A stretch of 64,000 nucleotides of DNA from Candidatus Krumholzibacteriota bacterium (GTDB taxonomy: Bacteria; Krumholzibacteriota; Krumholzibacteriia; LZORAL124-64-63): contig JAJRZA010000050.1 of the NCBI GenBank assembly GCA_024275485.1, positions 18,033-82,032 on the forward strand. The letters run 5' to 3'. Of the stretch, positions 13,771-17,149 are shown one piece after another; position 1 is the stretch's first letter; each line of letters opens with the position of its first letter. Position numbers and translations under genes: made by a program. The notes below the pieces were generated by a model, which was not told where the DNA came from, ran no database searches, and was given only the letters and a program-made list of their open reading frames with translations.

Positions 13771-14583
13771 ATGGATTTAGGACTCAAGGGAAAGACGGCC
13801 TTGGTCATGGCGGGCAGCCGTGGATTTGGTCGGGCCGTGGCATTGGAGTTGGCAGCTGAAGGTGCCAAGGTGGCTCTGTGTGCGAGGAACGCCGAAGACC
13901 TGGCCACCACTGCAGAGGAGGTTCGCTCTGTGGGCCAGGAGGCCTGGGGGGAAATGGCCGGAGCGGTGTTGGCGCAACCCCTTGATGTAACCGATGACCA
14001 GGCCGTGCGGGACTTTGTAAGTCTCACCCAATCCGACTTGGGCTCGGTGGACATCATGCTGGTCAACGCCGGCGGGCCACCCGCTGGAAATTTCGAAGAT
14101 CTGGATGAACATGACTGGAAGGTTGCCTACGAACTGACTCTCGAAAGTTCGGTGCGGCTTTGCAAACTTGTTTTGCCAGGGATGAAATCGAGGGGTTGGG
14201 GGCGAATTGTCCAGATCACTTCCGTGAGTGTGGTGCAGCCGGTGGAAAACCTGATGCTTTCCAGTGTCCTGCGTCCGGCGGTGCATGCTCTCACCAAAAC
14301 TCTTTCCGATGAAGCGGCGCCCTTTGGAGTGACCGTCAATTCCATTGCGCCGGGGTTTCACAACACCAGTGCTGTGCAGCGTCTGATCGCTAAGAAAGTG
14401 GAGCAAACGGGATGCGCCCCTGAGGATGTGATTGCCGGCTGGACCAAGGAAATTCCAGTTGGGCGTTTGGGGGAACCCGAAGAGTTGGCAGCTCTTATCC
14501 TGTTTCTGATGTCCAAACGGGCGAGTTATCTCACGGGACAATGCCTGGTTTCGGACGGCGGGTGGGTCAAAAAAACATTCTAA
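13771..14583 (+). CDS. SDR family oxidoreductase (3-oxoacyl-ACP reductase-like)
   Basis: AGSRGFG, NAGGPP, TVNSIAPG, GRLGEPEE and SYLTG motifs. Confidence 0.9.
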   Translation: MDLGLKGKTALVMAGSRGFGRAVALELAAEGAKVALCARNAEDLATTAEEVRSVGQEAWGEMAGAVLAQPLDVTDDQAVRDFVSLTQSDLGSVDIMLVNAGGPPAGNFEDLDEHDWKVAYELTLESSVRLCKLVLPGMKSRGWGRIVQITSVSVVQPVENLMLSSVLRPAVHALTKTLSDEAAPFGVTVNSIAPGFHNTSAVQRLIAKKVEQTGCAPEDVIAGWTKEIPVGRLGEPEELAALILFLMSKRASYLTGQCLVSDGGWVKKTF

Positions 14584-14609
14584 ATAACAAAATAATGCCT
14601 CTGGTCGGC

Positions 14610-14637
14610 TTGACAGAAGAAGTTCCTTTCCTATCTT
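14610..14637 (+). promoter_or_regulatory. Putative sigma70 promoter (TTGACA-N16-TATCTT) for the small-gene pair
   Basis: Consensus -35 in an AT-rich intergenic region. Confidence 0.45.
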
Positions 14638-14716
14638 ACTATCAATAAAGTATGCAATTAAATAATCTCGGTGTTGGCAGTTTTAATTCCTTCACAGGGT
14701 ATCAGGGAGTTCGTGC

Positions 14717-14902
14717 ATGAAAGAACTGATCATATTTGTGGTCTTCTACTTCGTCTTGGTGAAATTTATTTTTCCCAAGATGGGATTGAAGCCCGGTTGA
14801 GGTCCAAATGCGTGCTCGATCGGTGATCGAGATTCGTCGGACCCAACCCCAGGTTCCTCAAAAACCGCAGGTTCCGCTCCGGAGCCCCAAAAACTGGATT
14901 GA
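14717..14902 (+). CDS. Candidate 61-aa membrane selenoprotein MKELIIFVVFYFVLVKFIFPKMGLKPG-U-GPNACSIGD...QKLD (27 aa if UGA is a stop)
   Basis: RBS AGGGAG at 14704-14709 and ATG at 14717; hydrophobic TM segment; in-frame TGA 14798-14800; frame stays open to TGA 14900-14902; SECIS-like hairpin follows the UGA. Absent from the ORF track. Confidence 0.65.
14801..14843 (+). other. SECIS-like stem-loop 1
   Basis: Upper stem CTCGATC/GATCGAG (perfect) with apical loop GGT 21 nt after the UGA; lower stem GGTCC/GGACC. Confidence 0.6.
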
Positions 14903-14919
14903 AAGCTGGAGGTGGCGCA

Positions 14920-15138
14920 GTGCCGCTTTACGAATTCACCTGCAAAAAATGCGGGCAAAATTTTGAAGAGCTGATGACCTTGGCTGAATTGAACGACGGC
15001 AAGTTGAAGTGTCCTGCCTGTGATTCGAAACGCCTTGAGCGGGGATTCTCGGCGTTTGCCACTGGAAGCAGCGGTGTCGGTGGGAGTTTTGCCGGCGGAA
15101 GCCCAGATTGCGGCAGCGGCGGATTCACCTGAGGCTAG
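14920..15138 (+). CDS. FmdB-family zinc-ribbon protein, probably ending ...CGSGGFT-U-G (ends at 15132 if UGA is a stop)
   Basis: RBS GGAGG and GTG at 14920; MPLYEFTCKKC...CPACDS; Gly-rich tail; TGA-GGC-TAG at 15130-15138. Confidence 0.85.
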
Positions 15139-15143
15139 AAAAA

Positions 15144-15168
15144 TTCTGGTAGCCGTGTGTTGCCGGAA
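15144..15168 (+). other. SECIS-like stem-loop 2
   Basis: 10-bp stem TTCTGGTAGC/GTTGCCGGAA (three G-U pairs) starting 11 nt after the UGA; loop CGTGT 21 nt after the UGA. Confidence 0.45.
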
Positions 15169-15221
15169 AAAATAATGATAATAACTCCACAGCCTCTTGG
15201 CTCTGGAGTTTTATTTTGAAT

Positions 15222-16145
15222 TCAACACGGTCGGTTTTTCAGGCGATCACGGGCCACATCTCCCAACCGGCTGCCGAAGTACATCACCAGCCAGCCGAGG
15301 AGCAGTCCGGCAAATACGTCGACCACATAATGATACCGGTTGTAAACGGTGCTCATGCAAAGGAGCACGAAAATCGTTGTCATCCACCAACGATGCCGTG
15401 GGAAAAGTTTCCAGGTGTGCCACCAGGGAACCATGGAAGCGGCTACATGACTGCTGGGGAAGGCAGCCCCCAGAATGGCTCCATTTTCGTGAATATGTCG
15501 CATGATGTCAGTGAAAATCCAACCGCCCACATCCACATATCCTGCCTTGAAATACTTGGGGCCCCAGGCGGGGAACAGCGTGTAGAGCGTATAGCAGATG
15601 AGCATGGTGGTGCCGAGATCGCGAACGAAAGCCCGCACCGCATCCCACCGCTGGTCATCGGCCAGACCCTTGGCCCGCAAGGCAAGGGCGATAAATGAAA
15701 CAGCAAGGAAGTAGTAGGAAAAATAGGCAAACTCCATCAACTCGTGAAACCAGGCCCAAGGCCATACCCGCGACCATTCCAGGCTGGGTTGGAAACCGAA
15801 TATTGCCTGTTCAATTTTGATCAGGGCCGGATCAAGGCTGTTCTCGAATTCAAAAAATACCAATCCCAGGTATTCCATTTCGCCATAGAAAAATGGGAAG
15901 AGCAGCGGCAGGTAAATTTCCCCCAGCAGTCGCAATACAAAGTGACGGCTGCAACGCAGCATGGGTGGGAGGAACCAAACCCCCAGGGATAGACCAGCAT
16001 GCACAGCCATGTTAACCCATGGTTTGGGAGAAACGCCCGGTCGCAGGAAGGGATAAAAGGCACTGACCAGAAGATAGACCACCACCCAGCGGTCCATGTT
16101 CATGCGCCGGAGGGAAAGTTCAACAAGGGTTCGTCGCCAGGTCAA
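15222..16145 (-). CDS. PAP2-superfamily membrane phosphotransferase, Aur1/inositol-phosphorylceramide-synthase-like
   Basis: Multi-TM; FPAWGP, AAFPSSHV and STVYNRYHYVVD motifs; TTG start overlaps the upstream stop. Confidence 0.8.
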   Translation of the reverse strand: MTWRRTLVELSLRRMNMDRWVVVYLLVSAFYPFLRPGVSPKPWVNMAVHAGLSLGVWFLPPMLRCSRHFVLRLLGEIYLPLLFPFFYGEMEYLGLVFFEFENSLDPALIKIEQAIFGFQPSLEWSRVWPWAWFHELMEFAYFSYYFLAVSFIALALRAKGLADDQRWDAVRAFVRDLGTTMLICYTLYTLFPAWGPKYFKAGYVDVGGWIFTDIMRHIHENGAILGAAFPSSHVAASMVPWWHTWKLFPRHRWWMTTIFVLLCMSTVYNRYHYVVDVFAGLLLGWLVMYFGSRLGDVARDRLKNRPC

Positions 16146-17149
16146 AGCCAATCCTGTTCCTTGAAGAAGTCCATGGTGTTGGCAAATCCGGTGAGAGCCG
16201 AGTATTTGGGTTGCCAACCGGTTGTGGTGCTCAAAAGGGAACCGTCACAAACCCAGCCGGAGGTTTCCAGGTCCCTGATCCGGTCCGGGTTCAGGACGGG
16301 AGACGAGATGGCTCGGCCGCGACCCAGCAAAGAGCTACTGATTTTCAACAACACCAACGGCACCTGGAGAGTTCGGATTTTTTTCCCCGTGGTCGAACTC
16401 AGGATATCGGCCAGCTCCTGCCAATTGTATCCGGTGTGGAGGTCATCCACAAAATATGTTCCTGTAGCCTGGTCACACTGCATCAGGGCCACGGCGGCGG
16501 CGGCGGCATCCCAACCATGAACCAGACTCAATCCGGTCATTGATTTTCCCAGTCTGGCAGTGATGCCTCTGGTTGCTGCCTTGAAAAGGGGCAGGAATTC
16601 CTTGTCACGGGGGCCATAAAGTGAGGGCGGACGCAATATGGCACGGCGGAAACTCCATTCGGACCCGTTTACGGCCAACTCTGCGGCCAATTTGCTGCGC
16701 CCGTAGGCGGTGATGGGAGCTGGGGAGTTGCTTTCCACGGCCGGGTTATCCAGGCCTGCAGGTCCGTGGGCGGCCATGCTGGATATAAGTACAAAAGCAG
16801 GGTCGTCGCACTGCTCTTTCCAGGTCAGCTCGGCTCGGGCGAGCAAATTTTCGGTTGTTCGAACATTGGCACGTTGGTACTGCTGCTCACCGGTAGCAGT
16901 GACCAAGCCGGCACAGTGGATCAATCCGCTGCTGCCGGACAAAAATGAATCGCAGGATTTTGCATTCTCAAGATCCACTATAGTCGTCTCAATGTCTTTG
17001 CCTTCTAGCCAGCGAAGATTGCTCGTTTGCCGGATAGAGGCCCGAACGGCAAAGCCCTTGGCCAGCAGAATGTCGGCAACATGACTGCCCAAAAACCCCG
17101 AGGCCCCGGTCAGGGCGATCACGGGTTTGCTTCCGGAATGCCCGCTCAT
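16142..17149 (-). CDS. NAD-dependent epimerase/dehydratase-family reductase (ceramide reductase CerR-like by context)
   Basis: TGASGFLG, YGRSK (YxxxK) and RPPSLYGPRD motifs; coupled to the cerS-like gene. Confidence 0.8.
   Translation of the reverse strand: MSGHSGSKPVIALTGASGFLGSHVADILLAKGFAVRASIRQTSNLRWLEGKDIETTIVDLENAKSCDSFLSGSSGLIHCAGLVTATGEQQYQRANVRTTENLLARAELTWKEQCDDPAFVLISSMAAHGPAGLDNPAVESNSPAPITAYGRSKLAAELAVNGSEWSFRRAILRPPSLYGPRDKEFLPLFKAATRGITARLGKSMTGLSLVHGWDAAAAAVALMQCDQATGTYFVDDLHTGYNWQELADILSSTTGKKIRTLQVPLVLLKISSSLLGRGRAISSPVLNPDRIRDLETSGWVCDGSLLSTTTGWQPKYSALTGFANTMDFFKEQDWL

Follow-up and report, generated by a model that had tools for sequence, protein, structure and literature searches.

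FmdB-type zinc ribbons have entered the selenoprotein literature through Global Ocean Sampling (GOS) reads, from which two sequences were recovered with selenocysteine (Sec) in a zinc-ribbon CxxC motif, as CxxU or UxxU (Zhang and Gladyshev 2008, PMC2398784). A 2026 review of 119 prokaryotic selenoprotein families gives FmdB, in the portion available, as UxxU alone and without an accession (PMC13188914). Here we analyse a 64,000-nt stretch of a Candidatus Krumholzibacteriota genome (contig JAJRZA010000050.1; hereafter the window) in which an FmdB-type zinc-ribbon gene and a micro open reading frame (micro-ORF) directly upstream of it are both predicted to use an in-frame UGA as a Sec codon. Judged from their sequences, the two genes are one conserved unit of two predicted selenoproteins. 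The window zinc ribbon belongs to the same superfamily (TIGR02605/PF09723) as the GOS form and would share its recoding mechanism. The placement of Sec differs: in the GOS form it replaces a ribbon cysteine, whereas in the window form all four ribbon cysteines are kept and Sec is predicted at residue 71 of 72. In the orthologues from the window's phylum, unlike in the GOS form, Sec would stand 1–4 residues from the C-terminus and the selenocysteine insertion sequence (SECIS) past the true stop codon. Neither the window gene nor any of 27 + 52 aligned orthologues carries the catalogued CxxU or UxxU motif.

Sec at or within three residues of the C-terminus is known from other families, which resemble the window zinc ribbon in this and are unrelated to it in sequence; with Sec so near the end, their SECIS elements should therefore also lie beyond the stop codon. 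Animal thioredoxin reductase (-Gly-Cys-Sec-Gly) likewise finishes in Sec-Gly-stop on a flexible arm. The window zinc ribbon, in contrast, has no flavoprotein domain, and its Cys and Sec are separated by a variable distance of about 3–11 residues. In E. coli, an engineered bacterial-type SECIS yields rat thioredoxin reductase with Sec498, followed by Gly499 only, and almost none is obtained without the SECIS (PMC3834832). That arrangement was engineered, whereas the one in the window is natural.

The unit comprises the following features, in window coordinates:

14717..14902, plus strand: micro-ORF, with ATG at 14717, TGA at 14798-14800 as predicted Sec28 and true stop TGA at 14900-14902
14795..14848, plus strand: SECIS-type hairpin of the micro-ORF, inside the coding region
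14920..15138, plus strand: FmdB-type zinc-ribbon gene, with a GTG start, TGA at 15130-15132 as predicted Sec71 and true stop TAG at 15136-15138
15144..15168, plus strand: SECIS-type hairpin of the zinc-ribbon gene, 10 pairs, 3' of the true stop

GTG 14920 was taken as the start of the zinc-ribbon gene, rather than TTG 14899 of the ORF list, because the N-terminus MPLYEF is conserved. The frame ends ...DCGSGGFT, followed by TGA (15130-15132), GGC (15133-15135) and TAG (15136-15138), and read-through would give a product of 72 aa with Cys64-x6-Sec71-Gly72. A preliminary description of the locus had reported the TGA-GGC-TAG terminus and a 10-bp hairpin with the loop CGUGU, and both are confirmed in the sequence. 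The protein is a member of the FmdB family, matching TIGR02605 with 58.6 bits (cut-off 31.3) and PF09723 (Zn_ribbon_8) with 48.3 bits (cut-off 34.4). Its four ribbon cysteines, C8, C11, C31 and C34, are encoded by invariant Cys codons (27 + 52 aligned orthologues, alignments A1 and A2), and a Gly/Ser-rich tail with Cys64 follows. In the AlphaFold2 model the block-mean predicted local distance difference test score is 83–88 for residues 1–40 and 46–60 for the tail, which is probably flexible. A Foldseek search of the model against the PDB gave nothing at E ≤ 0.001 and generic zinc ribbons only; rubredoxins and the zinc domain of HypA, a nickel chaperone, are among the weak fold neighbours.

We examined the conservation of the TGA in 208 species-level genomes of the phylum (one class, nine families). 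The zinc-ribbon gene was found in 160 of them and is near-universal and single-copy; its 3' end was read in 87 genomes (47 of f1, 40 of the remaining eight families). The first stop is TGA in 85 of 85 distinct intact tails. It is followed by 1, 2, 3 or 4 sense codons (in 32, 27, 19 and 7 tails, respectively), which encode G, AS, SPF, NPFR, GIG, GGC and other short peptides. The Gly codon after TGA varies synonymously (GGC 29, GGT 7, GGA 5, GGG 3), and the second stop is TGA in 49, TAG in 29 and TAA in 7 tails. One copy, at locus L038, is interrupted by a contig end and lies outside the 85. Another (L032, genome G009, about 1501-1720) is frameshifted in the Gly-rich region and keeps GGFT-TGA-GGC-TAG and the hairpin in another frame; the copy is a recent pseudogene or the product of an assembly error.

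The distance from Cys to the predicted Sec varies between orthologues from about 3 to 11 residues, so the C-x6-U spacing pointed out in the preliminary description is not a conserved feature. At least seven orthologues finish U-x-x-C-stop, a classical redox motif. Tails of this kind (L093, L095-L098, L101 and L110, from families f3 and f9) close with Sec-x-x-Cys-stop, e.g. ...CGPT-U-GGC-TGA; there the true stop is also TGA, and two TGAs of predicted different meaning stand 12 nt apart.

The hairpin downstream of the zinc-ribbon gene is formed by arms 15144-15153 and 15159-15168 (10 pairs including two G-U, –12.1 kcal/mol), with the loop CGUGU at 15154-15158, exactly 21 nt from the TGA. We assessed its conservation in alignment A3, which consists of 85 distinct 52-nt stretches from the TGA onward and was not fitted to any structure. 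In the 8-pair stem 79.5% of cells are paired, versus 34–43% when the partners are slid, and 110 two-sided changes are seen; the covariation score is 0.416 versus 0.174 in shuffles and was reached by none of 500. The hairpin is thus both kept and covarying. The published bacterial SECIS (bSECIS) model calls for a loop of 3–9 nt, a stem of 4–16 bp, a minimum free energy ≤ –7.5 kcal/mol, a G in the first two loop positions and a distance of 16–37 nt from the UGA (PMC13188914). It is passed by the hairpins of both window genes and by 73/85 zinc-ribbon tails, versus 64/1322 (4.8%) of ordinary TGA stops in the same genome; with the spacing limited to 16–24 nt, the counts are 71/85 and 24/1322. As the extension lengthens from one to four codons, the loop stays at a median of 19–22 nt from the UGA, whereas its median separation from the true stop drops from 13 to 7 nt, and hence the hairpin is positioned relative to the UGA. 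No Rfam family match was found in 14500-15400.

The window's genome encodes the machinery that such recoding would use: selB (330.6 bits), selA (449.5 bits) and selD (366.5 bits) all score over the curated cut-offs, and a tRNA-Sec gene (selC) with the anticodon TCA is present. Across the phylum selB exceeds its cut-off in 189/208 genomes. SelD of the window's genome is itself a selenoprotein (...FAKSAG-TGA-AAKLSPGDL...; genome G000, contig C1:20138-21055, minus strand, outside the window), with an 8–9 bp hairpin whose loop GGG lies 17 nt after the in-frame UGA.

As ordinarily annotated, the upstream micro-ORF has 27 codons (MKELIIFVVFYFVLVKFIFPKMGLKPG) and ends at TGA 14798-14800. Its read-through product would be a protein of 61 aa with one transmembrane helix, the segment ...PKMGLKPG-Sec28-GPNA-Cys33-SIGDR and a hydrophilic tail, and its true stop (TGA 14900) lies 17 nt 5' of the zinc-ribbon start. 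The pattern of the family is a hydrophobic helix, LP(R/K)xG-x-P-(G/T)-Sec-x(3-5)-Cys-x-(I/V)-G-D-R and a variable hydrophilic tail. An in-frame UGA with continuing coding sequence, as expected of a bacterial selenoprotein gene, is thus found in both genes. The apical stem of the micro-ORF hairpin pairs 14815-14821 with 14825-14831 (7 bp), encodes C-S-I-G-D-R and closes on the loop GGU at 14822-14824, 21 nt from UGA 14798-14800; the preliminary description was right that the UGA-loop spacing, 21 nt each, is the same in the two genes. The hairpin has an energy of –26.8 kcal/mol (z = –2.4), with 88% of cells paired versus 23–55% when slid, and 19 two-sided changes, in one of which Ile -> Val is paired with a synonymous GAT -> GAC.

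The TGA stands at the same place in 57 distinct micro-ORF sequences. The Cys codon five residues past it is invariant, though its third base alone pairs in the stem, and in Acidobacteriota the Cys is kept while the residues after it change. A search with profile A5 located the micro-ORF in 144/208 genomes of the phylum (f1 86/90, f3 39/43, f8 7/13, f4 0/23, f5 1/12, f6 4/10, f7 5/8, f2 0/7, f9 1/1) and in 42 genomes of an even sample of 151 Acidobacteriota; the tallies of this sample include three genomes flagged as unpublished (G357, G260 and G235), from which no sequences were read. Every match under E = 1e-5 (144 + 42 genomes) has the in-frame TGA, and the hidden Markov model alignments extend beyond it. 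A Cys form of the micro-ORF was absent from the A5 matches in these 208 and 151 genomes, and the micro-ORF matches no Pfam or NCBIfam family. Overall, its sequence and RNA structure indicate that the upstream micro-ORF is very probably a second selenoprotein gene, with Sec predicted. The basic residues of the microprotein follow the helix, so by the positive-inside rule the Sec-x4-Cys segment should face the cytoplasm, the same side as the soluble zinc ribbon. We also considered, from the motif LG-V-P-T-U, whether the micro-ORF is a Sec version of the YgaP-like/DUF2892 C-terminus. This was rejected: hhalign of A5 against the PF11127 protein of the Acidobacteriota locus L247 gave 1.2% probability, and A5 members had no Pfam hits to PF11127.

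We then extended the comparison of zinc-ribbon tails beyond the phylum. When 1.84 billion representatives were searched with a profile, 25,128 relatives were obtained (E ≤ 0.001). Among the best 150 of these, 132 are small proteins, of which 56 end x-Phe-Thr/Ser/Gly, 29 resemble family f3 in their Gly/Pro/Ser/Thr-rich tails and 47 have other ends, many of them Cys-rich. Long proteins (600–1400 aa; P0035, P0036, P0040 and others) with 7–14 tandem FmdB-type zinc ribbons were also seen. Outside the phylum we defined the signature as TGA, 1–5 codons, a stop and a hairpin loop 15–20 nt from the TGA. It is present in full in 11/80 FmdB-family loci from named genomes of many other phyla, the carriers being assigned to Solibacteraceae, Acidobacteria, Anaerolineales, Chloroflexi, Syntrophaceae, Deltaproteobacteria, Planctomycetota and UBP7; the other 69 loci, with Ser-rich or Cys-rich tails, do not have it. 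Four of the five carrier genomes from other phyla that were tested contain selB; the one without it, 1.9 Mb in size, is of unknown completeness.

For Acidobacteriota, 29 of the 30 best zinc-ribbon loci were read, the remaining one belonging to an unpublished genome. A Sec-type tail is found in 27/29, with 1–3 further codons in 25 and ten or more in two, and 25/27 of these tails pass the SECIS model. In the two long cases (L221 and L224) the frame runs ten or more codons past the TGA, so that the SECIS is inside the coding region; the length of the extension varies more outside the window's phylum than within it. Genomes with a Sec-type zinc ribbon have selB in 27/27 cases and micro-ORF carriers in 42/42, versus 119/151 of the whole sample. 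In this sample the TGA form is therefore confined to Sec-using genomes. The best homologues in five selB-negative Acidobacteriota genomes have Cys-rich or other non-Sec tails, with TAG, TAA and TGA stops, and the signature occurs in 0/5. Cys-rich tails of relatives, e.g. ...GSCPFRD and ...SCDSCS, occur in selB-negative genomes. The alternation of TGA with TGY anticipated in the preliminary description was not seen at an exactly aligned column; what was found instead were these selB-negative relatives with Cys-rich tails. A word-based search for the form ...GGFTCG gave one candidate, which was uninformative.

The two genes are consistently paired. In 46/46 f1 genomes with upstream sequence the micro-ORF immediately precedes the zinc-ribbon gene on the same strand, and it does so in all 37 f3, 5 f7 and 1 f9 genomes with both genes placed in the search tables. 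At least 21 of the 42 Acidobacteriota carriers have it on the same strand no more than about 370 nt upstream; in 10 of these 21 pairs the genes adjoin directly, and in 11 a gap of 327–368 nt separates them. In all five gap loci fetched, the gap is filled by a thioredoxin gene (PF00085, WCGPC), and at L142 and L231 a thioredoxin gene stands immediately 5' of the zinc-ribbon gene. The gene order at the Acidobacteriota locus L247 is YgaP-like membrane protein, micro-ORF, thioredoxin, zinc ribbon. A PF11127 gene precedes the micro-ORF at L247 (positions 40-225), L249 and L250; at L247 its stop overlaps the micro-ORF start (ATGA), making the module one of four genes.

The surroundings of the pair in the window include these features:

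13771-14583, plus strand: short-chain dehydrogenase (SDR) gene, upstream of the pair
14610..14637, plus strand: promoter-like site (TTGACA, 16 nt, TATCTT), 10/12 consensus matches
15177..15220, plus strand: terminator-like hairpin and U-rich tail at the end of the two-gene unit
15222-16217, minus strand: PAP2-superfamily membrane-protein gene, downstream of the pair
16142-17149, minus strand: NAD-dependent epimerase gene, downstream of the pair

The terminator-like hairpin (15177-15215) is strong (–18.1 kcal/mol, z = –4.75; 0/200 shuffles as good), and was omitted by a simple terminator scan because its stem has an internal mismatch. About 0.9 sites as good as the 10/12 promoter-like match at 14610 are expected by chance in the region, which makes it weak evidence, and the single promoter of the preliminary description comes down to this match and the adjacency of the genes. 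A promoter-like site ahead of the first gene and a single terminator after the second fit co-transcription. In f1, the SDR gene is upstream in 52/60 loci and the PAP2 gene downstream, on the other strand, in 43/60. The SDR, PAP2 and epimerase genes hold their positions around the pair across most of f1; these stable surroundings could reflect plain vertical inheritance or a lipid-related context.

Taken together, these data are best explained by both genes encoding selenoproteins through the ordinary bacterial SelB/SECIS route, which we regard as very probable from the sequence evidence. The grounds are conservation, RNA structure, Sec machinery and synteny. The preliminary description had proposed a two-selenoprotein operon and named three findings that would speak against it: free use of TAA or TAG at the site by orthologues, a hairpin that is not conserved, and absence of selB or selC. 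Since TGA is kept in all 85 intact tails, the hairpin is kept and covaries, and selB and selC are present (as are selA and selD), the proposal is supported, and synteny of the gene pair extends over two phyla. The predicted recoding mechanism is the standard one. SelB with Sec-tRNA(Sec) would bind the hairpin at 15144-15168, and UGA 15130-15132 would be decoded as Sec. Only a Gly codon follows this UGA, which puts the predicted SECIS past the true stop and within the 3' untranslated region. The product would be a folded four-cysteine zinc ribbon (residues 1–44) with a flexible Gly/Ser-rich arm ending Cys64...Sec71-Gly72. The upstream gene would give a 61-aa single-pass membrane protein with Sec28-x4-Cys33 just past the helix, decoded via a SECIS within its own coding region.

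Several observations weigh against this explanation. The genomes compared are related and not independent, so the counts overstate significance, and Sec use is almost universal in the phylum, which therefore offers no Sec-free control of its own. Taken alone, the zinc-ribbon hairpin of the window is unremarkable (z = –1.83; 8/200 shuffles fold equally well); its significance derives from conservation and covariation, not from its own energy. Of the orthologue hairpins, 12/85 fail the –7.5 kcal/mol threshold, having the same loop and shorter stems. No homologue was found with Cys exactly aligned to the predicted Sec, the tails being of low complexity and aligning poorly. For the micro-ORF, the conserved C-S-I-G-D-R after the TGA is the same sequence as the SECIS stem-loop, and part of the peptide conservation may therefore be RNA-driven. 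The read-through frame is the longest of three in only 10/57 micro-ORFs, so that the open-frame test does not discriminate. As to function, the 100 loci examined in the window's phylum have no thioredoxin gene close to the pair, and hence the redox link comes from another phylum.

What the pair does is suggested by its context. The zinc ribbon, through its Cys...Sec arm, and the microprotein, through its Sec...Cys motif, may cycle between selenol/thiol and selenenylsulfide states, and the two proteins together may form a thioredoxin-linked redox relay on the inner side of the membrane. We tentatively favour such a selenol/thiol relay as the best functional reading, at slightly under an even chance. 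The preliminary description had spoken of a redox or metal relay; what bears on it is contextual, namely the thioredoxin genes within the Acidobacteriota module and the U-x-x-C ends of some orthologues. The main rival to the relay function, which we consider possible though rather unlikely, keeps both UGAs as Sec codons and has the arm and the membrane Sec...Cys bind or transfer a soft metal, a metalloid or selenium, as a small chaperone or sensor pair. The body of the protein is after all a metal-binding four-Cys ribbon with the HypA zinc domain and rubredoxins among its weak fold neighbours, and the variable Cys-Sec spacing suits a flexible ligand arm more than a fixed redox motif. For several C-terminal-Sec families, among them SaoC and the UXX-star families, the 2026 review interprets Sec as a potential ligand of metals (PMC13188914). 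However, no metal transporter or resistance gene adjoins the pair, the f1 neighbours being SDR, PAP2 and epimerase genes, while the recurring partner in Acidobacteriota is thioredoxin and some orthologues carry the classical U-x-x-C redox end.

A different possibility is that translation simply terminates at the TGA, giving a protein with the end ...GGFT, and that the hairpin serves the 3' part of the mRNA in stability, processing, attenuation or termination. Gene callers do end 33/33 close database homologues at ...GGFT, and the window hairpin is no stabler than many shuffles. Yet a simple stop would leave unexplained why the TGA is invariant in 85/85 tails when the next stop is freely TGA, TAG or TAA, why the intervening 1–4 codons act as codons with synonymous Gly variation, and why the hairpin keeps its distance to the TGA and not to the true stop. 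Termination is served by a separate, stronger hairpin downstream. The same model is passed by just 4.8% of ordinary TGA stops, and in Acidobacteriota the signature is limited to selB-positive genomes (27/27 versus 119/151 in the sample). We therefore consider an ordinary stop very unlikely.

Slightly less probable still is that the Gly/Ser/Cys-rich tail is a modified or cleaved bacteriocin-like precursor peptide with the zinc ribbon as its leader. The curators of TIGR02605 reportedly remark that FmdB tails resemble those of bacteriocin precursors. A 'selenobacteriocin' family with an SGUG motif is catalogued in the review (PMC13188914). Against this, no modification enzyme, protease or exporter gene stands beside the pair in the loci read, and the gene is near-universal and single-copy phylum-wide, unlike bacteriocin loci. 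Selenium-free read-through by a near-cognate tRNA (Trp or Cys) or a changed code is the least probable of all, for although UGA leaks more than either of the other stop codons, TGA ends 1322 of 2626 long ORFs in the window's genome (versus 1304 with other stops), which therefore uses the standard code, the full Sec machinery is present, and the hairpin fits a SelB-type model by loop sequence and spacing.

We compared the pair with catalogued selenoproteins. In the accessible family list of PMC13188914 there is neither a C-terminal-Sec FmdB nor a protein that is described as a membrane microprotein with a single helix. Full-text searches combining FmdB or 'zinc ribbon' with selenocysteine or selenoprotein returned nothing beyond the GOS entry, and an FmdB or zinc-ribbon selenoprotein is not mentioned in the main text of deep-Sep, BSepDB or Peng 2016. 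Among the NCBIfam selenoprotein models considered there was no hit to the window protein (E ≤ 1) or to 14 distant orthologues (15 read-through proteins, E ≤ 0.01). Specifically, NF041114 (UXX-star) did not match the window protein (E ≤ 1) or the 15 proteins (E ≤ 0.01), and the only match of NF041211 in the window's genome is one of 11 bits elsewhere, which is not relevant. NF041197 (CxxC_Se_CxxC) describes a dual CXXC motif small (seleno)protein that resembles the window zinc ribbon in its small size, two CxxC motifs and Sec; searches with it found nothing in the window's genome (E ≤ 10) or among the 15 proteins scanned. Within the selenoprotein catalogues that could be read, neither the C-terminal-Sec FmdB nor the membrane microprotein was found.

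The finding bears on how selenoproteins are counted and found. Gene callers stop the zinc-ribbon family at the TGA and probably pass over the micro-ORF altogether, given its mere 27 codons; selenoproteome counts of whole phyla would therefore be too low. Methods that need an aligned Cys/Sec pair, or a SECIS in the coding region, miss a Sec that is 1–4 residues from a low-complexity end. The zinc-ribbon genes would provide many natural cases of a bacterial SECIS acting past the stop codon.

For the FmdB family, the phylum-wide pair and the thioredoxin link in a second phylum suggest that the C-terminal Sec arm may be the working part of the protein. SELENOS and SELENOK are eukaryotic membrane-anchored proteins with a disordered Gly-rich end and Sec next to the C-terminus, and the Sec of SELENOS is joined in a selenenylsulfide to a Cys far from it. 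The pair described here belongs to another domain of life and differs in that the membrane anchor and the zinc-ribbon arm are two proteins. It is conceivable, though we think it doubtful, that micro-selenoprotein, thioredoxin and a zinc ribbon with a swinging Cys...Sec arm constitute a minimal, hitherto unrecognised selenium-dependent thiol/selenol relay at the cytoplasmic membrane in at least two phyla. If so, the relay would be a two-piece bacterial counterpart of the eukaryotic membrane-anchored, Sec-tailed proteins, and its zinc-ribbon component would be among the most widespread selenoprotein families missed by catalogues and gene callers.

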